Below, piece after piece: positions 12,157 through 55,694 of a DNA stretch of 64,000 bases. A program made the position numbers and the translations under genes. Numbering within the stretch: position 1 is the stretch's first letter; each line of letters opens with the position of its first letter. This DNA is from Escherichia coli. Its GTDB lineage: Bacteria; Pseudomonadota; Gammaproteobacteria; Enterobacterales; Enterobacteriaceae. Where the stretch lies: NCBI RefSeq assembly GCF_017348835.2, contig NZ_CP071375.1; one strand, 5' to 3'. Below the pieces are notes generated by a model. It saw only the letters and a list, made by a program, of their open reading frames with translations, had not been told where the DNA came from and made no database searches.

Positions 12157-12164
12157 GAACAATA

Positions 12165-37689: not shown

Positions 37690-40600
37690 ATGAGACACTT
37701 TATCTATCAGGACGAAAAATCACATAAATTCTGGGCGGTTGAGCAACAGGATAATGAGCTTCATATTAGATGGGGTAAAGTCGGTACTAACGGGCAAAGT
37801 CAGATAAAAAGTTTTTCAGATGCTGCTGCAGCGGCAAAAGCGGAGCTTAAGCTGATCGCAGAGAAAACGAAAAAAGGCTATGTGGAAAATGCTTCAGCAA
37901 ACGTGCATATCTCCCCCATCACCAAAGCCACTCCTGAAGTTGAAACTTCCCCTGAGAGTAAAAACCAACGCCCGTGGCTGGCTGATGATGCAGTTATTCC
38001 GGTAACTGACGATATTAACCGATTTGCTTTTCCTCATCGCTCTCGCCCCAGAGAGATCAATTATCTGCGCAAAGACGGTGAGATATGGAAGCGTATTGCA
38101 GATAACACCAGGGCATATGATCCCGACAACAATTACCGCTCTTATCCTGAAAACTGGCAGCAGGCTTTTGCTGAGTTACAAAGGCGAATTCTGGATAATC
38201 AACAGACAGGGAGTGCGCAATCTGATGCAGCATTGCTCTGGAGTTTTTGGAACTCTTACTCTGCAGATGAACTGGTCGATGACTTAGTCATTCGCTGTGG
38301 TCTGGAAAGCGCCGTTGAAATCGCCCTTTTTGCCCTTCAACTCAAATATAAACCAGTAAAAGGCGCAGTAACCACCATCATTCCACCTAATCACGAAGCA
38401 GAATCGCTACCTAGTTGGCATCAACGTCTATGTCATCATCTTTCACTCGCTTCAGAAGATGAGTGGCAACGCTGTGTAGATAAAGTACTCACCGCCATTC
38501 CGACGCTATCCCCCGCACGGCAACCTTTTGCGGCGCTACTGCTCCCTGAACGCCCGGATATCGCCCATGCTATAGCTCTACGCTATGCAGACCAAAACGT
38601 CCCGGCGATCACCTGGTTAAGTATGATGGTAAGCGATGATGTTGCCCTGGCCATCCAGGAAATATATGGTTTCCCACCGCTATATAATGATTTCCGCAAA
38701 TATCTGGCTACGTTGCTGGCAAATAATGGAATGCGTGGTGTAAGCCGGATTCTTCTCAAGCTACCTGTCGACTATCCCGTAAAATACACGGACCTTTTCA
38801 CTCACATACACGCCAATGCTGAAGATCTTGTCAAATGGCTATGGAAAACGAATCACCCGGATGCGATTCAAATTCTGATCCTCGGTGTAAATGGCAAGAA
38901 AAAGCACCTGGAATACTTAAGCAAAGCCTGCCAAAAACATCCCGCTGCGGCTATTGCCGCTTATGCTACTTTGCTGGCAATACATGAAAATAATGAGTGG
39001 CGTAAAGCGCTTGTCAAACTGATTACTGCCACGCCAGAGTTAGTATGCGAGGTCATTCCCTGGGTTAATGCTAAGGCGGCAGGCATCTTATCTGAATGTC
39101 GTCCGCTGCCAGTAGCTGAAGAATGTGAATATGCCACTGTGGATATGTTGCCGGAGCTGCTTGTCGCTCCACCGTGGATAATAAATAAGAAAAAGAATGT
39201 CATACCCGTATTTGATTTACCGGTACTTCCCATTCCTGCCGTCACGGATATCACACCAGGAATTACAGAGTTAATCAGTCATACTGACATATCCAGATTC
39301 AGTGAAATCGCGCAATATCAGGCATCACAGCAAACCTTATTTACCGATCTGCCACTAATTGAAAAAGAAAGCTGGGAGACATCTTTCATTCCTTTTACAC
39401 CAGAACAACAAATCCTTTGGCAATTAGGTTTTAATGAATGGCTGCATTGCGAAAATGACTTACATGAAAAAAAATATATACCGCAAAGCGCTGTTGATGC
39501 CTTGTTGCGCTTTGATTTTCCAGCACTAAAAGCTGAGTTTGCGAAATATCACAACAATGCCAACAAAAGCTGGAATCTATCTGCGCTTTGTTACTTACCG
39601 GGACAACAGGCGATCTCATTTCTCAACCAAATAATCATTGAGGAGCGATATTCAGGTGAGAAAGAGATTCTGGCGGTTTTTGGTAGTACGGCCATTCCTG
39701 CGTTTATGACCTGCTTGCAACGAGATCATCAACGCCTGTGGATATTCACCCTTTTTATTGGAGCCAGTGAACTAGCCTTACCAATGGCGCAGCGGTTACA
39801 GAAAAAAATGGGTTACAAGGATGCCGTTAATTGGCTGGCAAATAACCCGCGCCATGCCGCCGCCGGGCTACTGCCTTTGGCGCTGGGCAAACCGTGCCAA
39901 AATCGGGAATATGCCCGCCAGGCACTCCTCCTGCTAGTGAAATTAAACCAGCGAGAAACGATTGAGGAAATCACCCAAGGATATAATCAACCTGATGTTT
40001 TAGCTGCGCTGGCAACATTATTTGATAGCGACCCACTGGAAGAATATCCTGCAAAAATCGCCCCACTGCCCGGCTTTTATCAGTTCCCCTTATGGCGCAG
40101 ACCTCGGCTTAAAAGTAACAACCTGCCTCTGCCAGATGACACTATGCGCCACCTCGGCACAATGTTGAGCTTTCCACGCGACATTACCTCCTACGCTGGG
40201 CTGGCGATCATCAAAGAGACCTTCACCCGCGAATCACTGGCTGACTTTGGCTGGGATCTCTACACGGCATGGACAGAAGCTGGCGCACCCGCAAAAGAGA
40301 ACTGGGCATTTACCTCGCTGGGGATTCTAGGCAATGACGACACCGCGCGTAAACTAACCCCGCTCATCCGCGCCTGGCCGGGTGAATCCCAGCATAAACG
40401 CGCGGTTTACGGGCTGGATGTGTTAGCCAGTATCGGTAGCGACATTGCGCTTATGTTGCTTAATGGCATTGCGCAAAAGATTAAATTCGTTGCATTACAG
40501 GAACATGCCAGCGACAGAATCAATATGGTCGCCGAAAATCGCGGACTGACAATGGCCGAACTGGAAGATCGCCTGGCGCCGGATTTAGGGCTTGATAGCA

Positions 40601-41490
40601 GTGGCTCGCTGATACTGGATTTCGGCCCCCGCAAATTCACCGTTGGTTTTGACGAAACCTTAAAACCTGTAGTGTGCGATGCAAACGGCAAAGTCCTGAA
40701 AGATTTACCTAAGCCAAACCAGAGCGATGATAAAACACTGGCAACTGACGCAGTTAATCTCTTCAAACAGTTGAAAAAAGATGTTCGTGCTATCGCCAGC
40801 CAGCAAATTACCCGTCTGGAACAGGCTATGTGCCAGCGCAGACGCTGGACGGCAGAGCAGTTCCGCCTGTTTCTGGTGGAGCATCCGCTGGTACGTCACT
40901 TAACCCGACGGCTGTTATGGGGAGTATATACTGAGGAAAACACGCTGATTGCCTGCTTCCGGGTCGCAGAAGATAGCACTTACAGCGATGCGCAGGAAGA
41001 GCTATTCACGTTACCAGCAGGAAACATCGGTATTCCGCATGTGCTGGAAATATCCCCTGAATCCGCCGCTGCATTCAGGCAAATTTACGCTGATTACGAA
41101 CTGCTTCCCCCTTTCCAACAGCTCGAGCGAGGTAGCTATCACCTTGCTGATAATGAACGTAATACTCACGAACTGACACGCTGGCAAGGACGGCTTTGCC
41201 AGGCCGGACGCATTGTCGGGCTGGAACGCCGAGGCTGGCAACGTCTGGAAGAAAGCGGCAGCGTTTATGCGATGCGCAAAACAACCCCTCATGGCGATCT
41301 CGAACTTGAAACGGAACCTTTTTCATTAATTTATGGTGAAACGGGGTATGGCGACCAGCTACCGGTTGAAAGCGTAAAAATCACCTCGCCAGATGATCGC
41401 TACGGTAAACAATCCTCACTCACTTTCTCCATGCTCGACGACATCACCGCCAGCGAGCTGATTAACGACATCGAATCACTGTTTGATTAA
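37690..41490 (+). CDS. molR: MolR-like large protein, paralog 1 (1266 aa): N-terminal WGR domain + long DUF4132-type body
   Basis: N-terminus MRHFIYQDEKSHKFWAVEQQDNELHIRWGKVGTNGQSQ is a WGR-domain signature; remainder recognised as the YehI/MolR family; apparently intact here. Symbol assignment is from memory and tentative. Confidence 0.7.
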   Translation: MRHFIYQDEKSHKFWAVEQQDNELHIRWGKVGTNGQSQIKSFSDAAAAAKAELKLIAEKTKKGYVENASANVHISPITKATPEVETSPESKNQRPWLADDAVIPVTDDINRFAFPHRSRPREINYLRKDGEIWKRIADNTRAYDPDNNYRSYPENWQQAFAELQRRILDNQQTGSAQSDAALLWSFWNSYSADELVDDLVIRCGLESAVEIALFALQLKYKPVKGAVTTIIPPNHEAESLPSWHQRLCHHLSLASEDEWQRCVDKVLTAIPTLSPARQPFAALLLPERPDIAHAIALRYADQNVPAITWLSMMVSDDVALAIQEIYGFPPLYNDFRKYLATLLANNGMRGVSRILLKLPVDYPVKYTDLFTHIHANAEDLVKWLWKTNHPDAIQILILGVNGKKKHLEYLSKACQKHPAAAIAAYATLLAIHENNEWRKALVKLITATPELVCEVIPWVNAKAAGILSECRPLPVAEECEYATVDMLPELLVAPPWIINKKKNVIPVFDLPVLPIPAVTDITPGITELISHTDISRFSEIAQYQASQQTLFTDLPLIEKESWETSFIPFTPEQQILWQLGFNEWLHCENDLHEKKYIPQSAVDALLRFDFPALKAEFAKYHNNANKSWNLSALCYLPGQQAISFLNQIIIEERYSGEKEILAVFGSTAIPAFMTCLQRDHQRLWIFTLFIGASELALPMAQRLQKKMGYKDAVNWLANNPRHAAAGLLPLALGKPCQNREYARQALLLLVKLNQRETIEEITQGYNQPDVLAALATLFDSDPLEEYPAKIAPLPGFYQFPLWRRPRLKSNNLPLPDDTMRHLGTMLSFPRDITSYAGLAIIKETFTRESLADFGWDLYTAWTEAGAPAKENWAFTSLGILGNDDTARKLTPLIRAWPGESQHKRAVYGLDVLASIGSDIALMLLNGIAQKIKFVALQEHASDRINMVAENRGLTMAELEDRLAPDLGLDSSGSLILDFGPRKFTVGFDETLKPVVCDANGKVLKDLPKPNQSDDKTLATDAVNLFKQLKKDVRAIASQQITRLEQAMCQRRRWTAEQFRLFLVEHPLVRHLTRRLLWGVYTEENTLIACFRVAEDSTYSDAQEELFTLPAGNIGIPHVLEISPESAAAFRQIYADYELLPPFQQLERGSYHLADNERNTHELTRWQGRLCQAGRIVGLERRGWQRLEESGSVYAMRKTTPHGDLELETEPFSLIYGETGYGDQLPVESVKITSPDDRYGKQSSLTFSMLDDITASELINDIESLFD

Positions 41491-41502: not shown

Positions 41503-44500
41503 ATGAAAACCTATATTTATCAGGACGAAAAATCACATAAATTCTGGGCGGTGGAGCAGCAGAGAAACGAGCTGCATATTACCTGGGGTAAAGTCGGCAC
41601 TAACGGGCAAAGTCAGGTAAAAAGCTTTGCAGATGCTGCGGCGGCGGAAAAAGCGGAACTGAAGCTGATTGCGGAGAAGGTGAAGAAGGGGTATGTGGAG
41701 CAAGTAGACGCTAACGCTCACTCACATGATGCCTCAGCAAAGAAAGTCCTGGTCACAGAGGAAAAAGCCTCAATAAATCACCAGGCAGCAACTAATGGTT
41801 TACCCTGGCTGGCAGATAACGATCCCATTATTCTTCCCCCGAATATTGCCCGCCATGCCCTCAGCCACCGCCTTTGGCCGGGAGAGCCAGTAAAAAAGCC
41901 AACCAAACCCGAGAAACAAAATTTAATTTCCCGATTGGCAAATCGTACTTATCATTATTATAAAAATCTGACTTTCGATTACAGCTCATGCTCTGATGAA
42001 TGGGCTGATGCGATTAGCCAGGCAATCAGCTTAATTAAGGCCCAAAAGACTGAGATACCCGCGCGTACTATGGCGGTACTTACTTTTCTGGAAATATGTT
42101 TTTGTCAGGGCTGGAATGATGAAACCTCACCCGAGTTGCTGGATGAAATTGTAAGCACCTTCGGTATCGAATACGCAACTGAAACTGTCATCTTCTGGTG
42201 GCAAATTGATTTCGATTTTGACTATAAAGATGAACATTTGACTTTCTTTATTAATTATGGAGATAGCAGCAAGGACAGTTATAGAAGGAATAACGACAAA
42301 TTTAGTTTACGTCTGCGTAAACATTTATCACTAGCAGAAGAAGAAGTATGGCAAAATTGCATTGCAAAATTACTCGTTGCGTTACCAGATATATCACTCT
42401 ATCGCCAACCGTTAATTGCCATTTTAATGCCAGAAATACCCGAAGTGGCCCATGAGATCGTACATCGTTTACACCAGGTCGCAGATGTTCCACAACTTGA
42501 AATGTTGAAACTGGTAGCGACAGATCCATTCACGCTCGAAATACTGGAGAACTATCAATACATTGATGTATTTAACACCTATGGTGCCAGTTGGTCAGCT
42601 ACGGTATTACGGGAGCAAGGTATAGCGGCACTGGCTCGCCTGGCTCCCTATGCTGAAGAAGATAATTGCGGTGACGTACTGAAATGTATTAATCATCCGT
42701 TGGCCATTACGGCACTCATCGAAGCCGCCGATACTAATAAACGCTGTTATGAACGACTAATAAAAAGTGCCGAAAATTTTCCTTCTGCAACGATAGTGGC
42801 ATTAGCCGAAGCATTGGTAAAAAAAGATGATAAACGCAAACATATGTTGCTGGTTTCATTACTTAATGCAAATCCTTTATTGGTCGAAAAATTAGTCATC
42901 GGATTATCGTCGCAAGCGGCAAATTTATTGCAACAATGTCAGCAATTGCTGAATAGTCGCAATGAAGATTTTGCAAACTCAGAAATTCTACCAATGGTAC
43001 TAGTCTCGCCGCCCTGGGAAACTCAAAATAAAAATAACGACAACAGTCCTGTGGGTAAATACCCGGCGAAAATCCCCCCTTTGCCGTTGTTTTATCAACC
43101 TCCATTATGGACTCGCCCGAAACTCAAAAATAGCAGCAAGGTACTGCCAGATAGCGCCCTCCTCCACCTCGGTGAAATGCTCCGCTTCCCTCAGGAAGAG
43201 GCTCTGTATCCGGGATTATTGCAGGTGAAAGATGCCTGTACCGCCGACTCACTGGCTGAATTTGCCTGGGATCTGTTTACCGCCTGGCTGACTGCGGGCG
43301 CACCGTCGAAAGAGAGTTGGGCGTTCACTGCGTTAGGCGTTCTTGGTAACGATGACACCGCTCGCAAACTGACGCCATTAATCCGCGCCTGGCCTGGTGA
43401 ATCCCAGCATAAACGCGCCACCGTCGGGCTTGATATCCTCGCCGCTATCGGTAGTGATATCGCCCTGATGCAGCTTAACGGCATTGCTCAGAAACTGAAA
43501 TTCAAAGCTTTACAGGAGCGGGCGAAAGAGAAAATTGCCGACATTGCTGAAAGCCGCGAACTCACGGTGGCGGAGCTTGAAGATCGGTTAGCACCAGATC
43601 TCGGTCTGGATGATAACGGTTCGTTGCTGCTGGATTTCGGCTCACGCCAGTTCACCGTCAGCTTTGATGAAACCTTAAAACCGTTTGTGCGTGATGTTTC
43701 TGGCAGCCGTCTGAAAGACCTGCCCAAACCAAACAAAAGCGATGATGAATCACAGGCGAACGATGCTGTTAACCGCTACAAACTGCTGAAAAAAGATGCG
43801 CGTACCGTCGCCGCCCAGCAGGTAGCAAGGCTGGAATCCGCCATGTGCCTGCGTCGCCGCTGGTCACCGGAAAACTTTCAGCTCTTCCTGGTTGAGCATC
43901 CGCTGGTTCGCCACTTAACCCGCCGTCTGATTTGGGGCGTTTATAGCGCCGAAAACCAGCTGCAGGCTTGCTTTCGCGTAGCGGAAGATAACAGCTACAG
44001 CACCGCTGACGATGATCTTTTCACCCTGCCGGAAGGCGATATCTCTATTGGTATTCCTCACGTTCTGGAAATATCACCGACGGATGCTGCCGCCTTTGGT
44101 CAGCTTTTTGCCGACTACGAACTGTTACCACCGTTCCGCCAGCTTGACCGTAACAGTTACGCCCTGACAGAAGCCGAGCGCAACGCCAGCGAACTGACCC
44201 GCTGGGCAGGCAGAAAATGCCCGAGCGGTCGGGTAATGGGGCTGGCGAATAAAGGCTGGATAAAGGGCGAACCACAGGATGGAGGCTGGATCGGCTGGAT
44301 GATCAAACCTCTGGGCCGCTGGTCGTTAATCATGGAAATCGATGAAGGCTTTGCAGTGGGTATGTCACCAGCCGAACTTAGCGCTGAGCAGCTCTTAAGC
44401 AAGCTGTGGCTATGGGAAGGCAAAGCGGAAAGCTATGGCTGGGGGAGTAATTCAACACAGGAAGCGCAGCTCTCCGTACTCGATGCCATCACCGCCAGCG

Positions 44501-44535
44501 AGCTAATTAACGATATTGAAGCCCTGTTTGAATAA
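41503..44535 (+). CDS. MolR/YehI-family paralog 2 (1010 aa): WGR domain + DUF4132-type body lacking an internal segment of about 240 aa
   Basis: N-terminal WGR nearly identical to paralog 1; conserved C-terminal motif ITASELINDIEALFE; internal module absent relative to paralogs 1 and 3. Confidence 0.7.
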   Translation: MKTYIYQDEKSHKFWAVEQQRNELHITWGKVGTNGQSQVKSFADAAAAEKAELKLIAEKVKKGYVEQVDANAHSHDASAKKVLVTEEKASINHQAATNGLPWLADNDPIILPPNIARHALSHRLWPGEPVKKPTKPEKQNLISRLANRTYHYYKNLTFDYSSCSDEWADAISQAISLIKAQKTEIPARTMAVLTFLEICFCQGWNDETSPELLDEIVSTFGIEYATETVIFWWQIDFDFDYKDEHLTFFINYGDSSKDSYRRNNDKFSLRLRKHLSLAEEEVWQNCIAKLLVALPDISLYRQPLIAILMPEIPEVAHEIVHRLHQVADVPQLEMLKLVATDPFTLEILENYQYIDVFNTYGASWSATVLREQGIAALARLAPYAEEDNCGDVLKCINHPLAITALIEAADTNKRCYERLIKSAENFPSATIVALAEALVKKDDKRKHMLLVSLLNANPLLVEKLVIGLSSQAANLLQQCQQLLNSRNEDFANSEILPMVLVSPPWETQNKNNDNSPVGKYPAKIPPLPLFYQPPLWTRPKLKNSSKVLPDSALLHLGEMLRFPQEEALYPGLLQVKDACTADSLAEFAWDLFTAWLTAGAPSKESWAFTALGVLGNDDTARKLTPLIRAWPGESQHKRATVGLDILAAIGSDIALMQLNGIAQKLKFKALQERAKEKIADIAESRELTVAELEDRLAPDLGLDDNGSLLLDFGSRQFTVSFDETLKPFVRDVSGSRLKDLPKPNKSDDESQANDAVNRYKLLKKDARTVAAQQVARLESAMCLRRRWSPENFQLFLVEHPLVRHLTRRLIWGVYSAENQLQACFRVAEDNSYSTADDDLFTLPEGDISIGIPHVLEISPTDAAAFGQLFADYELLPPFRQLDRNSYALTEAERNASELTRWAGRKCPSGRVMGLANKGWIKGEPQDGGWIGWMIKPLGRWSLIMEIDEGFAVGMSPAELSAEQLLSKLWLWEGKAESYGWGSNSTQEAQLSVLDAITASELINDIEALFE

Positions 44536-44544: not shown

Positions 44545-47500
44545 ATGGACAAGGAATTACCGTGGCTGGCTGATAACGCCCAACTGGAACTGAAATATAA
44601 AAAGGGTAAAACACCACTCAGCCATCGCAATTGGCCGGGCGAACCAGTGCCTGTTATCACTGAAAGCATCATTCAGACACTGGGTGATGAATTGCTACAA
44701 AAAGCTGAGAAGAAAAAAAACATTGTCTGGCGTTATGAAAATTTTTCACTGGAGTGGCAGTCCGCCATCACGCAGGCCATCAACTTGATCGGCGAACACA
44801 AACCCTCAATCCCGGCCCGGACAATGGCGGCGCTAGCCTGTATCGCGCAAAATGACAGCCAACAGTTGCTCGACGAAATCGTCCAACAAGAGGGGCTGGA
44901 ATATGCGACTGAGGTGGTGATTGCACGCCAGTTTATTGCGCGGTGTTATGAGAGTGATCCTCTGGTAGTGACATTGCAGTATCAGGACGAGGATTATGGC
45001 TATGGTTATCGCTCAGAAACCTATAACGAATTCGATCTCCGACTGCGTAAGCATCTCTCTCTGGCAGAGGAAAGCTGCTGGCAGCGTTGCGCCGACAAAC
45101 TCATTGCCGCACTACCAGGAATAACCAAAGTTCGCCGCCCTTTTATTGCGCTGATCCTCCCGGAAAAACCAGAAATAGCCAATGAGTTGGTAGGCCTTGA
45201 ATGCCCGCGAACTCATTTTCATTCTAAGGAGTGGTTAAAAGTTGTTGCTAATGACCCCACAGCGGTGAGAAAACTCGAACACTACTGGAGCCAGGATATA
45301 TTTAGCGATCGAGAAGCCAGCTACATGTCGCATGAAAACCACTTCGGCTACGCGGCCTGCGCCTCCCTTTTGCGCGAACAAGGACTGGCAGCCGTTCCGC
45401 GCCTGGCAATGTATGCTCATAAAGAAGATTGCGGCAGTCTGCTGGTACAAATTAACCATCCGCAAGTCATCCGCACCTTGCTGTTAGTTGCTGATAAAAA
45501 CAAACCCAGCCTGCAACGTGTGGCTAAATACAGTAAAAACTTCCCCCATGCGACGCTCGCCGCACTGGCAGAACTGCTGGCGTTAAAAGAACCACCAGCC
45601 CGCCCTGGTTATCCAATCATCGAAGACAAAAAGCTGCCTGCACAGCAAAAAGCTCGAGATGAATACTGGCGTACGCTGTTACAAACGCTGATGGCATCGC
45701 AGCCACAACTGGCAGCAGAAGTGATGCCGTGGTTAAGTACTCAAGCCAGGGCAGTGCTGAAGAGTTATTTATCGGCACTGCCAAAACCGGTTATTGATGG
45801 CACCGATAACAGCAATCTGCCTGAAATCCTCGTTTCACCACCGTGGCGTAGTAAGAAAAAAATGACAGCTCCACGTCTTGATTTGGCACGGCTCGAATTA
45901 ACTCCGCAAGTTTACTGGCAACCAGGCGAACGAGAGAGGCTTGCCGCCACTGAGCCTGCCCGTTATTTCAGCACGGAATCTCTTGCGGAACGCATGGAAC
46001 AAAAAAGTGGACGAGTTGTATTACAGGAACTGGGTTTTGGGGATGATGTATGGCTGTTTTTGAATTATATACTCCCCGGAAAACTGGATGCTGCACGCAA
46101 TTCACTCATTGTTGAGTGGCATTACTACCAGGGGCGGGTTGAAGAGATCCTGAATGGCTGGAACTCCCCGGAAGCACAATTAGCAGAACAGGCGCTTCGC
46201 AGCGGTCACGTAGAAGCGTTAATTAACATATGGGAAAATGACAACTACTCACGTTATCGTCCGGAAAAGAGTGTCTGGAACCTGTATTTATTGGCACAGT
46301 TGCCGCGTGAGATGGCTTTGACCTTCTGGCTGCGTATCAATGAGAAAAAACATCTGTTCGCGGGTGAGGACTATTTTCTCAGTATCCTCGGATTGGATGC
46401 GCTACCAGGTCTGCTGTTGGCTTTTTCACATCGTCCAAAAGAAACATTTCCGTTAATTTTAAATTTTGGCGCAACAGAACTGGCCCTGCCTGTTGCCCGC
46501 GTCTGGCGACGTTTCGCGGTGCAGCGTGATCTGGCTCGCCAGTGGATTTTACAATGGCCGGAACATACGGCTACTGCACTTATCCCTCTTGTCTTCACCA
46601 AATCTAGCGATAAAAGCGAAGCTGCATTACTTGCCCTGCGTTTACTTTACGAACATGGGCATGGCGAATTGCTACAAACTGTAGCCAATCGTTGGCAGCG
46701 TACAGATCTATGGCCTGCCCTGGAACAATTACTTAAACAGAGTCCAATAGAGATTTACCCGGCACGCATTCCAAAAGCCCCTGATTTCTGGCATCCGCAA
46801 ATGTGGTCCAGGCCGCGCCTTATCACTAATAATCAAACTGTTACCGATGACGCTCTGGAAATTATCGGCGAAATGCTGCGCTTTACCCAGGGGGGACGTT
46901 TTTATAGCTGGCTGGAACAACTGAAAACGTTCTGCCAGCCACAAACGCTGGCAGCTTTTGCCTGGGATCTCTTCACTGCGTGGCAACAAGCTGGTGCCCC
47001 CGCAAAAGACAACTGGGCATTTCTGGCGTTAAGTCTCTTTGGTGACGAAAGCACGGCACGGGATCTGACGACACAGATCCTCGCCTGGCCACAAGAAGGC
47101 AAATCTGCCCGTGCTGTCAGCGGCCTGAACATCCTTACCCTGATGAATAATGATATGGCGCTGATACAGCTGCATCATATATCGCAACGGGCTAAATCCC
47201 GCCCCTTACGTGATAACGCGGCGGAATTTCTTCAGGTGGTCGCAGAAAATCGCGGGCTAAGCCAGGAAGAGCTAGCGGACAGATTAGTCCCAACCCTGGG
47301 CCTTGATGATCCGCAGGCGTTGAGTTTTGATTTTGGTCCCCGGCAGTTTACCGTTCGCTTCGATGAAAACCTCAACCCGGTTATCTTTGATCAGCAAAAC
47401 GTTCGCCAGAAAAGCGTTCCCCGGTTGCGCGCCGATGACGATCAACTGAAAGCGCCCGAGGCACTGGCCCGACTAAAAGGGCTAAAAAAAGATGCCACTC

Positions 47501-48177
47501 AGGTGAGCAAAAACCTGCTCCCGCGTCTTGAAACGGCCCTACGTACCACCCGACGCTGGTCGCTGGCAGATTTTCATTCTCTGTTTGTTAATCATCCCTT
47601 TACCCGTCTGGTTACCCAGCGATTAATATGGGGGGCTTATCCGGCAAATGAACCGCGTTGTTTACTCAACGCCTTTCGTGTGGCCGCAGAGGGGGAGTTC
47701 TGCAATGCGCAAGATGAGCCCATTGGCCTGCCTGCGGATGCTCTGATTGGCATTGCCCACCCGTTAGAAATGGCAGCAGAAATGCGCAGTGAATTTGCAC
47801 AGCTTTTTGCCGATTACGAAATTATGCCGCCTTTTCGCCAGTTGGCGCGGCGCACGGTGCTGCTGACGCCTGACGAGTCAGCCAGTAACAGCCTGACTCG
47901 CTGGGAAGGTAAATCCGCTACCGTTGGGCAACTTATGGGAATGCGATACAAAGGCTGGGAGTCAGGCTATGAGGACGCATTTGTCTATGACTTAAGTGAA
48001 TACCGGCTGGTCCTTAAGTTTTCACCCGGTTTTAACCACTACAATGTTGATAGCAAAGCGCTAATGAGCTTCCGTTCTCTTCGAGTGTACCGTGACAATA
48101 AATCCGTCACTTTTGCCGAACTTGATGTGTTTGATTTGAGTGAGGCGTTAAGCGCACCTGACGTCATTTTCCATTAA
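44545..48177 (+). CDS. yehI: DUF4132-family protein YehI (1210 aa), paralog 3, no WGR domain
   Basis: Begins at the conserved LPWLADN motif that lies about 95 aa into paralogs 1 and 2; 1210 aa as I remember for YehI. Confidence 0.8.
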   Translation: MDKELPWLADNAQLELKYKKGKTPLSHRNWPGEPVPVITESIIQTLGDELLQKAEKKKNIVWRYENFSLEWQSAITQAINLIGEHKPSIPARTMAALACIAQNDSQQLLDEIVQQEGLEYATEVVIARQFIARCYESDPLVVTLQYQDEDYGYGYRSETYNEFDLRLRKHLSLAEESCWQRCADKLIAALPGITKVRRPFIALILPEKPEIANELVGLECPRTHFHSKEWLKVVANDPTAVRKLEHYWSQDIFSDREASYMSHENHFGYAACASLLREQGLAAVPRLAMYAHKEDCGSLLVQINHPQVIRTLLLVADKNKPSLQRVAKYSKNFPHATLAALAELLALKEPPARPGYPIIEDKKLPAQQKARDEYWRTLLQTLMASQPQLAAEVMPWLSTQARAVLKSYLSALPKPVIDGTDNSNLPEILVSPPWRSKKKMTAPRLDLARLELTPQVYWQPGERERLAATEPARYFSTESLAERMEQKSGRVVLQELGFGDDVWLFLNYILPGKLDAARNSLIVEWHYYQGRVEEILNGWNSPEAQLAEQALRSGHVEALINIWENDNYSRYRPEKSVWNLYLLAQLPREMALTFWLRINEKKHLFAGEDYFLSILGLDALPGLLLAFSHRPKETFPLILNFGATELALPVARVWRRFAVQRDLARQWILQWPEHTATALIPLVFTKSSDKSEAALLALRLLYEHGHGELLQTVANRWQRTDLWPALEQLLKQSPIEIYPARIPKAPDFWHPQMWSRPRLITNNQTVTDDALEIIGEMLRFTQGGRFYSWLEQLKTFCQPQTLAAFAWDLFTAWQQAGAPAKDNWAFLALSLFGDESTARDLTTQILAWPQEGKSARAVSGLNILTLMNNDMALIQLHHISQRAKSRPLRDNAAEFLQVVAENRGLSQEELADRLVPTLGLDDPQALSFDFGPRQFTVRFDENLNPVIFDQQNVRQKSVPRLRADDDQLKAPEALARLKGLKKDATQVSKNLLPRLETALRTTRRWSLADFHSLFVNHPFTRLVTQRLIWGAYPANEPRCLLNAFRVAAEGEFCNAQDEPIGLPADALIGIAHPLEMAAEMRSEFAQLFADYEIMPPFRQLARRTVLLTPDESASNSLTRWEGKSATVGQLMGMRYKGWESGYEDAFVYDLSEYRLVLKFSPGFNHYNVDSKALMSFRSLRVYRDNKSVTFAELDVFDLSEALSAPDVIFH

Positions 48178-48237: not shown

Positions 48238-48555
48238 ATGATCGTGCAAAAAGAGCTGGTTGCTATTTACGATTATGAGGTCCCTGTACCTGAAGATCCG
48301 TTTTCCTTCAGACTTGAGATCCATAAATGCTCTGAATTATTTACAGGTTCCGTCTATCGACTGGAGCGATTCCGGCTACATCCAACATTTCGTCAACGTG
48401 ATCGAGAAGATGCTGACCCGCTAATAAATGATGCGTTGATTTATATAAGAGATGAGTGTATTGATGAGCGGAAATTACGAGGTGAATCACCTGAAACTGT
48501 AATAGCAATTTTTAATCGTGAACTACAGAATATATTCAACCAAGAAATAGAATAA
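48238..48555 (+). CDS. yehK: Uncharacterized protein YehK (105 aa)
   Basis: 105-aa ORF; synteny. Confidence 0.75.
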   Translation: MIVQKELVAIYDYEVPVPEDPFSFRLEIHKCSELFTGSVYRLERFRLHPTFRQRDREDADPLINDALIYIRDECIDERKLRGESPETVIAIFNRELQNIFNQEIE

Positions 48556-48664: not shown

Positions 48665-48754
48665 TTACTTCAACAAATCAATCAACCGTAACAGAGCTAC
48701 TAATAGCTCCAGTACAGCAATGAGCACGGTTAACTTTTGTGTCAGCGTGTCCAT
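48665..48754 (-). CDS. zorO: Type I toxin, ShoB/Zor-like small hydrophobic peptide (29 aa: MDTLTQKLTVLIAVLELLVALLRLIDLLK)
   Basis: Not in the ORF track (below size cutoff). ATG with AGGAGA SD 4 nt upstream; single predicted TM helix with charged C-terminus; about 175-nt 5' UTR; divergent antisense sRNA upstream. Symbol from my recollection of the EHEC zorO-orzO locus, unverified. Confidence 0.65.
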   Translation of the reverse strand: MDTLTQKLTVLIAVLELLVALLRLIDLLK

Positions 48755-48992: not shown

Positions 48993-49075
48993 GTTGGAAC
49001 ACGATGTTGCACAGGCTGTGGTGTTAGGCCTGAAAATAGTAAATAAAAGAACCTGCCTCACCAGCAGGTTTTTTT
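48993..49075 (+). ncRNA. orzO: Antitoxin sRNA (OrzO/OhsC-like) divergent from the toxin gene
   Basis: Short transcript bounded by the promoter and a rho-independent terminator (CCTGC-ctcacca-GCAGG + T7 at 49053-49075); its first 20 nt (48993-49012) repeat 48827-48846 within the toxin 5' UTR with 19/20 identity, giving antisense complementarity. Confidence 0.6.
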
Positions 49076-49186: not shown

Positions 49187-50275
49187 ATGTCACCGCAGAA
49201 TAATCATCTGCAGCGTCCGCCTGCTGCTGTGTTATACGCCGATGAACTGGCAAAATTAAAACAAAATGATACCGCACCTTGCCCGCCCGGTTGGCAGTTA
49301 AGTTTGCCTGCGGCCCGTGCTTTTATCCTTGGCGATAGCGCGCAAAATATTAGCCGTAAAGTGGTGATTAGTCCCTCCGCTGTCGAACGTATGTTAGTCA
49401 CTCTTGCCACCGGACGCGGTTTGATGTTGGTGGGGGAACCTGGCAGCGCAAAATCTCTCCTGTCTGAATTACTGGCAACCGCTATTAGCGGCGATGCCGG
49501 GTTAACCATCCAGGGCGGCGCATCTACTACCGAAGATCAAATCAAGTACGGCTTGAACTACGCCCTGCTTATCAATCATGGTCCATCAACGGAAGCGCTG
49601 GTCCCTGCCCCGCTTTACCAGGGAATGCGCGACGGCAAAATCGTCCGTTTTGAAGAGATAACGCGTACACCGCTGGAAGTGCAAGACTGTCTGTTAGGTA
49701 TGCTTTCTGACAGGGTGATGACGGTGCCGGAACTCACTGGTGAAGCCAGTCAGCTCTATGCGCGAGAAGGCTTTAATATTATTGCCACTGCCAATACCCG
49801 CGATCGCGGCGTCAATGAAATGAGTGCTGCGCTAAAGCGTCGCTTCGATTTTGAAACTGTCTTTCCGATTATGGATTTCGTCCAGGAGCTGGAGCTTGTC
49901 GCCAGTGCTTCGGCGCGTTTGCTGGCCCATAGCGGTATTCCGCATAAAGTGCCTGACGCGGTACTGGAGTTACTGGTCCGCACCTTCCGCGATCTGCGTG
50001 CCAACGGCGAAAAGAAAACGTCAATGGATACACTAACAGCGATTATGTCCACCGCTGAAGCCGTGAACGTGGCCCACGCTGTGGGCGTCCGCGCCTGGTT
50101 TTTAGCGAATCGCGCAGGTGAGCCAGCCGATCTGGTGGACTGTATTGCCGGAACCATCGTCAAAGATAACGAAGAAGATCGCGCTCGTCTGCGCCGTTAC
50201 TTCGAACAGCGAGTCGCCATACATAAAGAAGCTCACTGGCAGGCTTATTATCAAGCCCGCCACCGCCTGCCGTGA
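49187..50275 (+). CDS. yehL: MoxR-type AAA+ ATPase YehL (362 aa)
   Basis: Walker A GEPGSAKS; MoxR/CbbQ-like; start at MSPQNNHLQRP. Confidence 0.85.
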   Translation: MSPQNNHLQRPPAAVLYADELAKLKQNDTAPCPPGWQLSLPAARAFILGDSAQNISRKVVISPSAVERMLVTLATGRGLMLVGEPGSAKSLLSELLATAISGDAGLTIQGGASTTEDQIKYGLNYALLINHGPSTEALVPAPLYQGMRDGKIVRFEEITRTPLEVQDCLLGMLSDRVMTVPELTGEASQLYAREGFNIIATANTRDRGVNEMSAALKRRFDFETVFPIMDFVQELELVASASARLLAHSGIPHKVPDAVLELLVRTFRDLRANGEKKTSMDTLTAIMSTAEAVNVAHAVGVRAWFLANRAGEPADLVDCIAGTIVKDNEEDRARLRRYFEQRVAIHKEAHWQAYYQARHRLP

Positions 50276-50285
50276 GGAAAGATGC

Positions 50286-52565
50286 ATGAGCGAGCCGTTA
50301 ATTGTCGGCATCCGGCATCATAGCCCGGCCTGCGCCCGGCTGGTGAAATCGTTAATCGAAAGCCAGCGGCCACGATACGTGTTGATTGAAGGCCCGGCTG
50401 ATTTTAATGACCGGGTATACGAACTGTTTTTAGCCCACCAGCTTCCGGTAGCTATTTACAGTTATTGCCAGTATCAGGACGGTACGGCCCCCGGGCGCGG
50501 TGCCTGGACGCCATTTGCTGAATTTTCGCCGGAGTGGCAGGCGCTACAAGCCGCACGTCGTATTCAGGCACAAACTTACTTCATCGATTTGCCTTGCTGG
50601 GCACAGAGTGAAGAAGAGGACGATTCGCCTGATACGCAAGATGAAAGCCAGGCCTTACTGCTGCGTGCCACCCGCATGGATAACAGCGATACCCTGTGGG
50701 ATCACTTGTTCGAAGATGAAAGCCAGCAAACTGCATTACCCTCTGCGCTGGCGCACTATTTTGCCCAACTGCGGGGCGACTCCCCCGGAGATGCACTCAA
50801 TCGTCAGCGCGAAGCCTTTATGGCCCGCTGGATTGGATGGGCGATGCAGCAAAATAATGGCGACGTGTTAGTTGTCTGCGGTGGCTGGCACGCTCCGGCA
50901 CTGGCAAAAATGTGGCGCGAATGTCCGCAGGAAATTAACACGCCAGAATTGCCGTCGCTGGCAGATGCCGTTACAGGTTGTTATCTCACACCCTACAGTG
51001 AAAAGCGCCTTGATGTGCTGGCAGGATACCTTTCCGGAATGCCTGCCCCGGTCTGGCAAAGCTGGTGCTGGCAGTGGGGCTTACAGCAGGCGGGAGAACA
51101 ACTGCTAAAAACGGTTCTTACCCGTTTGCGCCAACACCACTTGCCTGCTTCGACCGCGGATATGGCTGCCGCTCATCTGCATGCGATGGCGCTGGCACAG
51201 TTGCGCGGACATAAACTACCGTTACGCATTGACTGGCTGGATGCCATAGCAGGCTCGCTGATTAAAGAAGCCCTGAACGCGCCGTTGCCGTGGAGCTATC
51301 GCGGCGTTATTCATCCCGACACCGATCCGATTCTGCTAACGTTGATAGACACATTAGCGGGTGACGGATTCGGTAAACTTGCCCCTTCTACGCCACAACC
51401 GCCTCTGCCAAAAGATGTCACCTGCGAACTGGAACGTACCGCAATCTCTCTTCCGGCGGAGCTTACCTTAAATCGCTTTAACCCCAATGGACTAGCGCAA
51501 AGTCAGGTGTTACATCGGCTGGCAATACTGGAGATCCCAGGGATTGTACGCCAGCAGGGAAGCACACTGACACTTGCAGGCAACGGTGAAGAACGCTGGA
51601 AATTAACCCGCCCGCTTAGCCAGCATGCGGCATTGATTGAGGCCGCCTGCTTTGGTGCCACACTCCAGGAAGCCGCACGCCATAAATTAGAAGCCGATAT
51701 GCTGGACGCGGGTGGAATCGGCAGTATCACCACATGTCTTAGCCAGGCGGCGTTAGCGGGTCTGGCGTCCTTCAGTCAACAATTACTGGAGCAACTCACA
51801 TTATTAATCGCCCAGGAAAATCAATTTGCCGAAATGGGCCAGGCGCTGGAAGTGCTATATGCCTTATGGCGGCTGGATGAAATTAGCGGTATGCAAGGCG
51901 CGCAGATATTACAAACGACGTTATGCGCGGCTATCGATCGCACGCTCTGGCTGTGTGAATCCAACGGCAAACCGGATGAAAAGGAGTTTCACGCTCACCT
52001 GCATAGCTGGCAGGCGCTTTGCCATATCCTGCGCGATCTACATAGCGGCGTTAATTTACCCGGCGTTTCTCTTTCTGCGGCGGTAGCCTTACTGGAGCGA
52101 CGCAGTCAGGCAATCCATGCCCCGGCGCTGGATCGCGGCGCGGCTCTTGGCGCACTGATGCGTCTGGAACATCCCAACGCCAGTGCCGAAGCGGCGCTGA
52201 CGATGCTGGCACAGTTTTTCCCGGCACAATCCGGCGAAGCGCTGCACGGTTTGCTGGCGCTGGCCCGCCATCAACTGGCCTGTCAGCCGGCATTTATCGC
52301 CGGTTTCAGCAGTCATTTAAATCAACTAAGTGATGCCGATTTTATCAATGCCCTGCCCGATTTACGCGCGGCGATGGCCTGGCTACCGCCACGAGAACGC
52401 GGGACGCTGGCGCATCAGGTGCTTGAACATTATCAACTGGCGCAACTTCCCGTTTCGGCGCTGCAAATGCCGTTGCATTGCCCACCACAAGCCATTGCAC
52501 ATCATCAACAACTCGAACAGCAGGCACTGGCATCGCTGCAAAACTGGGGAGTTTTCCATGTCTGA
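50286..52565 (+). CDS. yehM: Uncharacterized large protein YehM (759 aa)
   Basis: Start MSEPLIVGIRHHSP 11 nt after yehL stop; no recognisable catalytic motif. Confidence 0.8.
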   Translation: MSEPLIVGIRHHSPACARLVKSLIESQRPRYVLIEGPADFNDRVYELFLAHQLPVAIYSYCQYQDGTAPGRGAWTPFAEFSPEWQALQAARRIQAQTYFIDLPCWAQSEEEDDSPDTQDESQALLLRATRMDNSDTLWDHLFEDESQQTALPSALAHYFAQLRGDSPGDALNRQREAFMARWIGWAMQQNNGDVLVVCGGWHAPALAKMWRECPQEINTPELPSLADAVTGCYLTPYSEKRLDVLAGYLSGMPAPVWQSWCWQWGLQQAGEQLLKTVLTRLRQHHLPASTADMAAAHLHAMALAQLRGHKLPLRIDWLDAIAGSLIKEALNAPLPWSYRGVIHPDTDPILLTLIDTLAGDGFGKLAPSTPQPPLPKDVTCELERTAISLPAELTLNRFNPNGLAQSQVLHRLAILEIPGIVRQQGSTLTLAGNGEERWKLTRPLSQHAALIEAACFGATLQEAARHKLEADMLDAGGIGSITTCLSQAALAGLASFSQQLLEQLTLLIAQENQFAEMGQALEVLYALWRLDEISGMQGAQILQTTLCAAIDRTLWLCESNGKPDEKEFHAHLHSWQALCHILRDLHSGVNLPGVSLSAAVALLERRSQAIHAPALDRGAALGALMRLEHPNASAEAALTMLAQFFPAQSGEALHGLLALARHQLACQPAFIAGFSSHLNQLSDADFINALPDLRAAMAWLPPRERGTLAHQVLEHYQLAQLPVSALQMPLHCPPQAIAHHQQLEQQALASLQNWGVFHV

Positions 52566-53694
52566 ACTGAACGATCTTCTGACCACCCGTGAGCTACAAC
52601 GCTGGCGATTAATTCTTGGCGAAGCGGCAGAAACGACGCTTTGTGGGCTGGATGACAACGCCCGGCAGATAGACCACGCGCTGGAATGGCTGTATGGGCG
52701 CGATCCTGAACGGCTCCAGCGTGGTGAACGCTCCGGTGGATTAGGTGGCTCAAATCTCACCACCCCTGAGTGGATCAACAGTATTCACACGCTGTTTCCG
52801 CAACTGGTGATTGAGCGGCTGGAAAGCGATGCCGTACTGCGCTATGGCATTGAAGATGTGGTGACGAATCTCGACGTGCTGGAACGTATGCAGCCTTCTG
52901 AAAGCCTGCTACGCGCCGTTTTGCACACCAAACATCTGATGAACCCCGAAGTACTGGCTGCCGCCCGCCGGATAGTGCGCCAGGTTGTTGAAGAAATTAT
53001 GGCTCGACTGGCAAAGGAAGTTCGTCAGGCTTTTTCTGGTGTCCGCGATCGCCGTCGCCGCTCATTTATTCCACTGGCGCGAAACTTTGATTTCAAAAGT
53101 ACTCTTCGCGCCAACCTGCAACACTGGCACCCGCAACACGGCAAGTTGTATATCGAATCCCCCCGCTTTAACAGCCGCATTAAACGCCAAAGCGAACAAT
53201 GGCAACTGGTCTTACTGGTTGATCAAAGCGGCTCGATGGTCGATTCGGTGATCCACTCTGCGGTGATGGCGGCCTGTTTATGGCAGTTACCCGGCATTCG
53301 TACCCATCTGGTGGCGTTTGACACAAGCGTCGTTGATCTCACGGCAGACGTTGCCGATCCGGTAGAGTTATTAATGAAAGTGCAATTAGGCGGCGGAACC
53401 AATATCGCCAGTGCCGTGGAATATGGTCGGCAACTTATTGAACAACCAGCGAAAAGCGTCATTATCCTCGTGAGCGATTTTTACGAAGGGGGTTCATCAT
53501 CATTACTGACGCATCAGGTGAAAAAGTGTGTCCAGAGCGGCATCAAAGTGCTGGGACTGGCGGCGCTCGATAGCACCGCAACACCTTGCTATGACCACGA
53601 TACGGCCCAGGCGCTGGTAAATGTCGGCGCACAAATAGCCGCCATGACGCCGGGCGAGCTGGCATCATGGCTTGCGGAGAATCTTCAGTCATGA
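52558..53694 (+). CDS. yehP: von Willebrand factor A (VWA) domain protein YehP (378 aa)
   Basis: ATGTCTGA overlap with yehM stop; MIDAS motif LLVDQSGSM. Confidence 0.85.
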   Translation: MSELNDLLTTRELQRWRLILGEAAETTLCGLDDNARQIDHALEWLYGRDPERLQRGERSGGLGGSNLTTPEWINSIHTLFPQLVIERLESDAVLRYGIEDVVTNLDVLERMQPSESLLRAVLHTKHLMNPEVLAAARRIVRQVVEEIMARLAKEVRQAFSGVRDRRRRSFIPLARNFDFKSTLRANLQHWHPQHGKLYIESPRFNSRIKRQSEQWQLVLLVDQSGSMVDSVIHSAVMAACLWQLPGIRTHLVAFDTSVVDLTADVADPVELLMKVQLGGGTNIASAVEYGRQLIEQPAKSVIILVSDFYEGGSSSLLTHQVKKCVQSGIKVLGLAALDSTATPCYDHDTAQALVNVGAQIAAMTPGELASWLAENLQS

Positions 53695-55694
53695 ATTCAC
53701 TACGTCCGGAATTATTAGAACTGACACCGCAGGCACTGACGGCGTTAAGCAATGCCGGTTTTGTTAAGCGCAGCCTTAAGGAACTGGAAAATGGCAACGT
53801 CCCGGAAATCAGCCATGAGAACGGCGCTTTAATCGCCACCTTCAGTGACGGTGTCCGTACCCAGCTGGCGAACGGTCAGGCACTGAAAGAGGCTCAGTGC
53901 AGCTGCGGGGCCAGCGGCATGTGCCGTCATCGCGTGATGCTGGTGTTAAGTTATCAACGACTTTGTGCCACCGTCCAGCCCACGGAAAAAGAAGAAGAGT
54001 GGGATCCGGCAATCTGGCTGGAAGAACTGGCTACCCTGCCCGATGCCACCCGCAAACGCGCACAGGCGCTGGTCGCTAAAGGCATCACCATTGAGTTGTT
54101 CTGTACGCCGGGCGAAATTCCCTCTGCCCGCTTACCGATGAGCGATGTGCGTTTTTATTCCCGTAGCAGCATTCGTTTCGCCCGTTGTGATTGTATTGAA
54201 GGCACACTTTGCGAACATGTCGTACTGGCAGTACAGGCCTTTGTCCAGGCAAAAGCGCAGCAAGCGGAATTGACTCATTTAATCTGGCAGATGCGCAGCG
54301 AACACGTCACATCATCTGACGATCCGTTTGCCAGCGAAGAAGGCAACGCGTGTCGTCAATATGTTCAGCAATTAAGCCAGGCATTATGGCTTGGCGGCAT
54401 CAGCCAGCCGCTCATCCATTACGAGGCAGCATTCAACCGCGCATTGCAGGCGGCAGAGGCCTGCAACTGGCGCTGGATGAGTGAGTCACTACGACAGCTA
54501 CGGGCAAGCGTTGATGCCTTCCATGCCCGCGCCAGCCACTATCATGCCGGAGAATGCTTACGTCAGCTTGCGGCATTAAACAGTCGATTAAATTGCGCAC
54601 AAGAGATGGCGCGCCGCGACAGTATCAGTGAAGTTCCTCCCATGCCGTGGCGAACGGTGGTTGGCGCAGGCATTGCTGGCGAAGCAAAGCTTGATCATTT
54701 GCGGCTGGTGTCGCTAGGTATGCGTTGCTGGCAGGATATTGAGCAGTATGGTTTACGCATCTGGTTTACCGATCCCGACACCGGCAGTATTTTGCACCTT
54801 TCGCGCAGTTGGCCGCGAAGTGAACAGGAAAACTCACCGGCAGCGACGCGTCGGCTATTTAGTTTTCAGGCAGGCGCGCTGGCGGGTGGGCAAATTGTTT
54901 CACAAGCAGCAAAACGCAGTGCCGATGGCGAGCTGCTGTTAGCTACCCGCAACCGCTTGAGTAGTGTTATTCCACTGTCGCCAGACGCCTGGAAAATGCT
55001 GAGTACGCCGCTGCGCCAGCCGGGCATTGTGGCTTTGCGGGAATATTTACGCCAGCGTCCCCCCTCCTGCATACGGCCTCTTAATCAGGTCGATAACTTA
55101 TTTATTCTGCCGGTCGCTGAGTGTATTTCGCTCGGTTGGGATAGCAGCCGCCAGACGCTGGATGCGCAGGTAATCAGCGGCGAAGGTGAAGATAATCTGC
55201 TGACGTTATCACTGCCAGCCTCAGCCAGCGCGCCTTATGCCGTTGAACGCATGGCGGCGCTTTTGCAACAAACAGACGACCCCGTGTGTCTGGTTTCTGG
55301 CTTTGTCAGTTTTGTTGATGGGCAATTGACACTGGAACCACAGGTAATGATGACAAAGACTCGAGCCTGGGCGCTGGACGCAGAAACTGCGCCTGTGGTG
55401 GCATCACTACCTTCTGCCAGCGTTCTGCCTGTGCCGTCTACTGCTCATCAGTTGCTGATGCGCTGCCAGGCATTACTTATTCAACTGCTCCATAACGGCT
55501 GGCGCTATCAGGAACAGAGTGCTATTGGTCAGGCAGAGTTGCTGGCGAATGACCTCACCGCGGTGGGTTTTTATCGGCTGGCACATATGTTGGGACAATT
55601 TCGTAATACAGAAAGCGAGGCATGGGTAGAAGCAATGAATAACGGTGTTTTGCTGTGCGAACAATTATTCCCCATGCTTCAGCAACAAGGATGA
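53691..55694 (+). CDS. yehQ: SWIM zinc-finger protein YehQ (667 aa from the ATG overlapping the yehP stop)
   Basis: ATGA overlap with yehP stop; two CxCx5CxH SWIM motifs at 53898-53930 (CSCGASGMCRH) and 54186-54218 (CDCIEGTLCEH). Confidence 0.8.
   Translation: MNSLRPELLELTPQALTALSNAGFVKRSLKELENGNVPEISHENGALIATFSDGVRTQLANGQALKEAQCSCGASGMCRHRVMLVLSYQRLCATVQPTEKEEEWDPAIWLEELATLPDATRKRAQALVAKGITIELFCTPGEIPSARLPMSDVRFYSRSSIRFARCDCIEGTLCEHVVLAVQAFVQAKAQQAELTHLIWQMRSEHVTSSDDPFASEEGNACRQYVQQLSQALWLGGISQPLIHYEAAFNRALQAAEACNWRWMSESLRQLRASVDAFHARASHYHAGECLRQLAALNSRLNCAQEMARRDSISEVPPMPWRTVVGAGIAGEAKLDHLRLVSLGMRCWQDIEQYGLRIWFTDPDTGSILHLSRSWPRSEQENSPAATRRLFSFQAGALAGGQIVSQAAKRSADGELLLATRNRLSSVIPLSPDAWKMLSTPLRQPGIVALREYLRQRPPSCIRPLNQVDNLFILPVAECISLGWDSSRQTLDAQVISGEGEDNLLTLSLPASASAPYAVERMAALLQQTDDPVCLVSGFVSFVDGQLTLEPQVMMTKTRAWALDAETAPVVASLPSASVLPVPSTAHQLLMRCQALLIQLLHNGWRYQEQSAIGQAELLANDLTAVGFYRLAHMLGQFRNTESEAWVEAMNNGVLLCEQLFPMLQQQG

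Follow-up and report, generated by a model that had tools for sequence, protein, structure and literature searches.

The yehLMPQ genes of Escherichia coli and their DUF4132 partners: a conserved five-family module that may be an ATP-driven remodelling machine

Four genes of Escherichia coli, yehL, yehM, yehP and yehQ, lie packed on one strand downstream of an array of genes encoding proteins with a DUF4132 domain, some of which also carry a WGR domain. Do these genes form one system, and if so, what might it do? We analyzed them in a 64,000-nucleotide stretch of E. coli DNA (contig NZ_CP071375.1; hereafter the window), in which yehLMPQ occupies positions 49187-55694. This region is E. coli chromosome and is 100% identical to strain PE164. 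RefSeq labels the four products as an ATP-binding protein (YehL), a DUF5682 protein (YehM), a vWA protein (YehP) and a SWIM protein (YehQ), and gives the gene order as apbC, metG, three DUF4132 genes, yehK, yehLMPQ and yehR. An original prediction, made from the letters alone, had proposed an uncharacterized multi-component MoxR/VWA/SWIM system tied to the WGR-DUF4132 array. Co-occurrence and tight junctions across phyla, together with fusions of YehM to YehP, bear this proposal out. The unit consists of five protein families, DUF4132(n)-L-M-P-Q (we refer to the DUF4132 proteins as W and to the others by their last letters), and it is a self-contained cytoplasmic module that is inherited and transferred as a unit.

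A five-family module shared by distant phyla

Using an alignment of 35 diverse DUF5682 proteins, we collected loci across GTDB, taking one genome for each species. A relative of YehM is encoded in at least 548 loci, from more than 500 species. We kept 80 loci, added one from Variovorax, and ran iterative profile searches over all open reading frames (ORFs) of the resulting 81. These span the Enterobacterales, Burkholderiales, Xanthomonadales, Myxococcota/'Deltaproteobacteria' and many Actinobacteria. Beside the YehM family, YehL was found in 80 of the 81 loci, YehP in 79, YehQ in 78 and a DUF4132 protein in 73. Nearly all loci have the arrangement W(1-5)-L-M-P-Q on a single strand, and in 79 of the 81 yehP lies two genes downstream of yehL on the same strand. 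The arrangement in Burkholderia is L-M-P-Q-W, and on a Sinorhizobium plasmid it is L-M-W-P-Q, so that the operon encloses the DUF4132 gene. W is missing from a locus with complete flanks only in two cases, both from Actinoplanes. A check proposed with the original prediction was whether DUF4132 co-occurs with MoxR, VWA and SWIM genes outside the Enterobacteria; it does, with conserved order and strand, in distant phyla and in differing contexts.

The flanks of the module vary by genus and are mostly housekeeping genes, such as those for cytochrome bc1, ribosomal proteins and purine synthesis; the yehR-yehS-btsRS genes downstream of the E. coli module are common only to Klebsiella. The complete module is also carried by plasmids, including a 77-kb mobilizable Iodobacter plasmid, a conjugative Sinorhizobium plasmid and Streptomyces linear plasmids. 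All-against-all clustering of the flanking ORFs of the 81 loci revealed no sixth conserved gene beyond genus-level synteny, and no homologue of yehK was found in these loci. Hence yehK seems to be specific to Escherichia, inserted between the W array and LMPQ without being part of the system. Because linkage is conserved across the 81 loci and on plasmids, we count DUF4132 into the functional unit and yehK out of it, and we regard this composition as solid. The proteins of the module are all net acidic and lack strong hydrophobic segments.

The genes are closely coupled well beyond E. coli. Independent gene calls from Variovorax, Iodobacter, Streptomyces and a metagenomic contig (L083) likewise show overlaps of 4 nucleotides (nt), or gaps of at most 10 nt, at the junctions of L, M, P and Q. 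In four separate 50%-identity clusters, a single polypeptide joins DUF5682 to a full-length YehP that follows it. Two of these M-P fusions were confirmed in their genomic context as L-[M·P]-Q, one of them with two W genes upstream. Because of these gene fusions M is tied to P, and with the overlaps and the conservation they make it probable that YehM is physically attached to YehP.

The families diverge at different rates. Median identity to the E. coli protein is highest for L (63% in Actinobacteria to 80% in other Enterobacterales) and decreases through P (56-74%) and M (38-55%) to Q (27-46%). For W it is 35-39%, a range that overlaps that of Q and for which only the conserved C-terminal part could be aligned. 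Among the YehM relatives listed, identity is at least 88% in Escherichia and about 70% in Klebsiella, with nothing falling in between.

Related gene sets were also observed. Some genomes have a second, divergent L-M module in tandem (locus L091, 13598-19543; locus L060, 1876-8856). The one in L091 is preceded not by DUF4132 genes but by genes for a 501-amino-acid (aa) protein and a 580-aa HEAT_2 protein. Such modules hint that L-M systems may form a broader superfamily in which the large helical partners differ. Separately, a 14-kb faecal virome contig (L092; MT835988.1, 'UNVERIFIED: Bacteriophage sp.') encodes distant YehL, YehM and YehP in this order (166-4879), followed by a 1216-aa ORF, and no YehQ or DUF4132 match was detected on it. 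As a candidate phage-borne module we judged this contig not informative. Our phage search found no verified phage with the module.

Predicted roles of the five proteins

To our knowledge, E. coli has only two MoxR ATPases, YehL and RavA, the latter studied for two decades. YehL represents one of seven named MoxR subfamilies and has carried that name since 2006 (PMC3893208). At least 93% of 80 homologues keep its Walker A motif (GEPGSAKS, aa 83), a Walker-B-like pair, E156-E157 ('RFEEITR'), and many other positions of this exceptionally constrained protein. The same level of conservation holds in YehP for the MIDAS residues D222, S224 and S226 (motif DQSGS(M), aa 222) and for T249/D255/T256 and D307, which on the basis of their conservation are candidate distal Thr/Asp ligands of the MIDAS. 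YehP also matches Pfam VWA_2 (5e-8) and has a conserved N-terminal region of 150 aa. From what is established for these families we infer that YehL forms a MoxR-type AAA+ ring, the motor, and YehP its VWA/MIDAS adaptor. An AAA_5/MoxR ATPase gene coupled to a VWA gene with an intact MIDAS is what the locus shares with RavA-ViaA, CbbQ-CbbO, NorQ-NorD and CoxD-CoxE. In those systems, however, the client has been identified (Nuo/Frd, Rubisco, NO reductase and CO dehydrogenase) and is usually encoded nearby, whereas yehLMPQ has no linked enzyme client and its motor pair travels instead with DUF5682, SWIM-OB and DUF4132 proteins.

In YehM the original prediction had seen no recognizable motif, a view that is superseded by fold analysis: a TIKI/TraB/ChaN-like fold, invariant His, Glu and Arg residues and a HEAT-like solenoid. 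The structure model has a predicted local distance difference test score (pLDDT) of 90, and its N-terminal domain shows the parallel beta-sheet core fold common to TraB, HopBA1, ChaN and Bcr135/136. In 35 sequences from several phyla, R10, H11, E35, H51, E83, D101, R175, E176, G199, G200 and H202 are invariant. Residues H11 (H12), E35, E83, R175/E176 and H202 come just after beta-strands, and H11, E35 and H202 sit at strand ends in the model. Active members of the TIKI superfamily use a 2His/2Glu site and a conserved arginine (PMC6254334). Because YehM combines a TIKI-like fold with invariant residues at the ends of beta-strands, we predict that it is an active hydrolase with a His/Glu site. 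A TIKI-type site of this kind, carried on a HEAT-like scaffold, would likely be the catalytic output of the module. The superfamily includes TIKI1/2, TraB/PrgY, erythromycin esterases, RRSP and HopBA1 as well as the non-enzymatic ChaN and PMT. YehM differs from these proteins in having no Pfam sequence match to the superfamily, in the fusion of its domain to a HEAT solenoid and in its coupling to an AAA+/VWA motor, a link that we did not find for TIKI proteins in the literature searched.

YehQ is modelled (pLDDT 91.6) as OB-like beta-barrels and helical bundles. A Foldseek search of AFDB50 returned more than 800 clusters, and the best 50 listed are all uncharacterized SWIM-type proteins; a sequence search of the PDB returned nothing for either YehQ or YehM. 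The two SWIM motifs that had been noted in YehQ are both present in E. coli, but only the first is a family trait: SWIM-1 (CSCGASGMCRH, aa 70; C70, C72, C78, H80) is 99% conserved, whereas SWIM-2 (CDCIEGTLCEH, aa 166) is lineage-specific and kept in only about 46% of homologues. With its SWIM finger and OB-like barrels, YehQ probably binds a ligand or substrate, possibly single-stranded nucleic acid. Its similarity to ZSWIM8-type SWIM substrate receptors is at the level of the fold only; no cullin or ubiquitin machinery accompanies YehQ, and the OB-like barrels are found in YehQ and not in ZSWIM8. Within E. coli and Shigella, one helical region of YehQ (aa ~245-330) has gained or lost 23-53 residues in frame through duplication or deletion; short repeats such as AGEC/AGEA seem to flank these changes, and protein lengths include 623, 627, 666-667, 689 and 709 aa.

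The W proteins combine a constant and a variable part. Between phyla, the C-terminal DUF4132 domains retain 41-71% identity, with about 27 invariant residues that are mostly polar (charged or aromatic) and include an ADYE..QPF.Q..R motif. The N-terminal two-thirds are far more divergent, and the three E. coli paralogues are only 31-40% identical there. For instance, W2 and W1 are 36% identical in their N-terminal halves and 61% in their C-terminal halves; YehI (W3) shares 31-44% identity with W1 and W2. Searching with a DUF4132 domain profile contributed little: most of its matches were short fragments. The WGR domain of W1 is recognized through NF047464 and homology of the PDB 2ra8 type, and WGR is the only W region that matches in a PDB sequence search (2ra8). 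WGR occurs in just 46 of the 73 loci that have DUF4132 and, like SWIM-2, is lineage-specific; the number of W genes per locus varies from 1 to 5. Thus WGR and SWIM-2 are accessory and not defining features of the module. Because the W proteins have a constant domain, a variable remainder and a variable copy number, they look like exchangeable clients, partners or sensors that may dock through DUF4132.

The E. coli locus, its variation and its regulation

We recomputed the ORFs and junctions of yehLMPQ and of the upstream array from the sequence of the window (Table 1). The upstream WGR/DUF4132 array that the original prediction had placed next to yehLMPQ is real, and the motifs that it quoted for YehL, YehP and YehQ are all there. 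Its junctions were largely reproduced: yehM overlaps yehP by 8 nt (ATGTCTGA) and yehP overlaps yehQ by 4 nt (ATGA), but the spacer from the yehL stop to the yehM ATG, given as 11 nt, is 10 nt long. Shine-Dalgarno-like GGAG/GAGG runs precede every downstream start in yehLMPQ. The GC (guanine plus cytosine) fraction across LMPQ is 0.50-0.57, and the composition of these genes gives no clear foreign-DNA signature.

Table 1. Features of the yehLMPQ locus and the upstream array, in positions of the window
Feature	Positions	Strand	Description
LexA-box-like site CTGGATAAAATTACAG	37665-37680	+	10 nt upstream of the W1 (molR) start
W1 (molR homologue, intact here)	37690-41490	+	WGR + DUF4132, 1266 aa; RefSeq 'DUF4132 domain-containing protein'
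W2	41503-44535	+	WGR (aa 7-69) + DUF4132 (aa 734-919), 1010 aa; Pfam WGR 2e-17, DUF4132 9e-52
W3 = yehI	44545-48177	+	DUF4132 without WGR, 1210 aa; Pfam DUF4132 3e-46 at aa 954-1138
yehK	48238-48555		105 aa, acidic
yehL	49187-50275	+	MoxR-type AAA+ ATPase, 362 aa; Pfam AAA_5 5e-33; type member of the YehL subfamily
yehM	50286-52565	+	DUF5682, 759 aa; predicted TIKI/TraB/ChaN-like hydrolase fold, middle domain, C-terminal HEAT-like solenoid; Pfam DUF5682 1e-97
yehP	52558-53694	+	VWA (CoxE-like), 378 aa, intact MIDAS; Pfam VWA_CoxE 7e-72
yehQ	53691-55694	+	SWIM protein, 667 aa, helical bundles + OB-like beta-barrels (model); Pfam SWIM twice, weak (1e-3, 0.2)

Between the DUF4132 array and yehL stand yehK and a 631-nt spacer. 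The spacer contains a zorO/orzO type I toxin-antitoxin locus (48665-48754 on the minus strand and 49000-49075 on the plus strand), made up of a 29-aa hydrophobic ORF (MDTLTQKLTVLIAVLELLVALLRLIDLLK) and the OrzO antitoxin RNA (Rfam RF02083, 99.9 bits; gathering score 60). In K-12 the yehK-yehL spacer is only 306 nt long. All eight proteins encoded between 37690 and 55694 match high-numbered families of PHROGs v4 near-identically, with up to 1721 bits. This suggests that a prophage prediction took in this stretch of chromosome and that 'phage' families were then seeded from it; the matches are not evidence of phage origin, and PHROGs matches need caution when they are used as evidence for viral origin.

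Of 5426 complete E. coli genomes, 5354 contain the yehLMPQ region, and 5202 have at least 80% of its length. The array is more variable. At least 80% of the three-gene array is present in only 936 of the 5426 genomes; most, including K-12, have two genes (~7.4 kb), with W2 absent or merged. Nucleotide identities of the array are shifted down, with 2442 genomes in the 90-95% range vs 426 for LMPQ. In an ST131 sublineage, a blaCTX-M-15 transposon has inserted in the W-array region (PMC9334617). In K-12 (AB1157, locus L089), molR is a pseudogene with a frameshift and an internal stop (9002-12797) and yehQ is a pseudogene with an internal stop (21628-23628). K-12 thus lacks intact versions of two of the five components.

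Some of the published regulation of these genes hints at DNA damage. In E. coli, molR is listed among the LexA-regulated genes with an SOS box (PMC6590174); in the window, CTGGATAAAATTACAG upstream of W1 has one mismatch to CTGT-N8-ACAG, and no LexA box was found upstream of yehL. In Deinococcus radiodurans, the targets of DdrO include the DUF4132 protein DRA0166 and the WGR protein DR2173, both of which become more abundant upon mitomycin C treatment in a way that depends on IrrE (PMC8533742). Other inputs have been described as well. BglJ-RcsB directly activates the molR promoter, on which H-NS exerts no repression (PMC3950696), and yehL and yehM are up in an hns stpA mutant, with the intergenic region bound by H-NS (PMC3686432). 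With two regulons in two phyla, and with OB, SWIM and WGR domains in the module, DNA damage is the best available pointer to its biology, although not a conclusive one. The original prediction had also suggested a machine acting on DNA, RNA or a nucleoprotein. That idea gains modest support from the OB-like folds of YehQ, the SOS control of molR and the DdrO-regulated Deinococcus homologue.

What the module may do

The nearest mechanistic analogies are to the Mg- and Co-chelatases and to Midasin. The chelatases (BchI/BchD/BchH; CobS/CobT/CobN) likewise have an AAA+ motor, a VWA/MIDAS subunit and a very large (1000-1400 aa) partner. They differ in that W has no homology to CobN or BchH, that our module has two extra subunits, one of them a predicted hydrolase, and that no tetrapyrrole genes are nearby. 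Midasin/Rea1, which strips assembly factors from the pre-60S particle, offers the combination of an AAA_5 motor with a MIDAS, the removal of protein from a nucleoprotein particle and HEAT-like partners. It is, however, a single giant polypeptide of eukaryotic ribosome biogenesis, and the likeness is one of analogy through shared domain families only. The MoxR-vWA-beta-propeller ternary conflict systems (bpMoxR, PF20030) also embed a MoxR-VWA core in a larger multi-gene module with variable partners, but the bpMoxR match of YehL (E = 0.016) is far below that to AAA_5, and no beta-propeller or effector-associated-domain genes are conserved with our module.

We propose that W(n)-L-M-P-Q is an ATP-driven remodelling machine with the YehM hydrolase as its output, acting in a response to DNA damage or abnormal DNA, and we give this reading a probability of roughly 45%. 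In such a machine, the DUF4132 domain would be the constant docking or active part of the W proteins, and their variable N-terminal regions (WGR or others) and copy number would give specificity. ATP-driven remodelling of a W-M-Q assembly by L and P would activate the YehM hydrolase or deliver substrate to it. The least certain part is that the module would respond to DNA damage or abnormal DNA. A more specific version strikes us as doubtful. In it, a machine responsive to DNA damage or foreign DNA uses the MoxR-VWA motor to license YehM as a TIKI-type protease or esterase, its targets are picked by DUF4132 sensors and the SWIM/OB subunit, and it would have escaped genetics because K-12 is a natural double mutant, with molR and yehQ as pseudogenes.

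Several points weigh against the proposed machine. The complex, the ATPase activity and the hydrolase activity are predictions, and we found no experiment on L, M, P or Q in the searchable literature. The Pfam TraB and ChaN models do not match the YehM sequence, and its predicted active site comes from fold rank and conservation. WGR and SWIM-2 are not universal in the module. As to damage control, CTGGATAAAATTACAG alone is not above chance, with 24 such sites in the window vs 17 expected. No LexA-type box (gamma/beta motif) was found upstream of W in 19 other proteobacterial loci, and actinobacterial LexA motifs were found upstream of W only in three Lentzea loci, where they lie within the preceding W coding sequence. 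Because the LexA motifs have no counterpart in the other loci scanned, damage control may be lineage-specific wiring. Moreover, the W array and LMPQ are not co-regulated in E. coli, since yehL and yehM respond to H-NS/StpA and molR does not; yehK and the toxin-antitoxin locus also stand between the two halves.

One alternative is that no system exists and that yehLMPQ and the DUF4132 array are unrelated neighbours, compactly arranged in E. coli by chance. The intervening yehK and spacer and the apparently different regulation in E. coli would fit, but linkage across at least four phyla in unrelated contexts, the fusions and the W gene inside the Sinorhizobium operon effectively refute it. An anti-phage or anti-plasmid defence system, in which DUF4132 paralogues sense the invader, the MoxR-VWA motor activates and the YehM hydrolase is the effector, is a more serious rival, and a defence role had been raised as a hypothesis at the outset. 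It would account for W proteins that are rich in paralogues, variable in copy number and more divergent than the motor, for the patchy distribution (the gap between Escherichia and Klebsiella) and for the silencing of yehL and yehM by H-NS. Toxins such as RRSP and HopBA1 have the TIKI fold (PMC6254334). The module is also found on plasmids: on the Iodobacter plasmid pl1 (L086), a type I restriction-modification system with flanking insertion sequence elements adjoins it (20092-23749), an anecdotal case, and on the Sinorhizobium plasmid (L087) SMI1/KNR4 and DUF1963 genes, which we take to encode immunity-type proteins of polymorphic toxin systems, are nearby (23-2744). However, a comparison of the eight proteins with the 5027 models of PADLOC-DB 2.0 (E ≤ 0.01) matched no defence family. 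Fifty flanking proteins from 17 loci, a small sample on which no formal enrichment test was made, gave only partial and generic matches (a helicase, an aminotransferase, a subtilase and a fragment of MzaA). The flanks are mostly housekeeping genes, no verified phage carries the module, and in E. coli the locus is near-universal and at a fixed position. With neither a PADLOC family nor a defence-island signal, the defence hypothesis has essentially no support from these searches, and we consider it unlikely.

Somewhat less likely again is a general stress or proteostasis chaperone, with L and P helping their own large partners to fold, assemble or disassemble and with no role in nucleic-acid biology or conflict. 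Characterized MoxR proteins do act as chaperone-like maturation factors (PMC3893208), the partners are all large helical proteins, and the molR promoter answers the envelope-stress-linked BglJ-RcsB. Yet this explanation leaves unaccounted for the invariant hydrolase-type residues of YehM, the invariant polar core of DUF4132, the SWIM/OB architecture of YehQ and the placement of W genes under damage regulons in two phyla. An insertion chaperone for a cofactor or metal centre, serving an enzyme encoded elsewhere, possibly a molybdoenzyme, in the manner of CoxD/CoxE, NorQ/NorD or the chelatases, appears improbable to us. It is recommended by the VWA_CoxE match of YehP, the AAA_5 domain that YehL has in common with CoxD and CobS, the combination of motor, VWA protein and very large third subunit seen in the chelatases, and the old name molR, 'molybdate metabolism regulator'. 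There are also weak NCBIfam matches to a cobaltochelatase subunit (YehP, 18 bits vs a cut-off of 779) and to GvpN, all sub-threshold. But no metalloenzyme or cofactor gene is conserved beside the module in the 81 loci, the W proteins match only WGR and DUF4132 in Pfam and neither CobN nor BchH, molR is broken in K-12, and in Deinococcus the molybdenum-metabolism genes are not co-regulated with the DUF4132 gene (PMC8533742).

In the searchable literature we found no paper that mentions DUF5682 and none that names a yehLMPQ operon; the individual genes and DUF4132 appear in passing only. The MoxR subfamily name of YehL and the gene annotations were already known. New, as far as we found, are the five-family module, the predicted TIKI-like YehM, the modelled combination of OB and SWIM folds in YehQ, the finding that WGR and SWIM-2 are accessory, the M-P fusions and the double defect of K-12, which would explain why K-12-based screens have missed the system. 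The analysis thereby names YehM as the probable, predicted catalytic subunit, with specific residues, and DNA damage as the indicated condition for the system. If the proposed machine is right, it would add a new output, regulated hydrolysis, to the MoxR-VWA repertoire and would give a first function to the DUF5682, DUF4132 and YehQ-type SWIM families.

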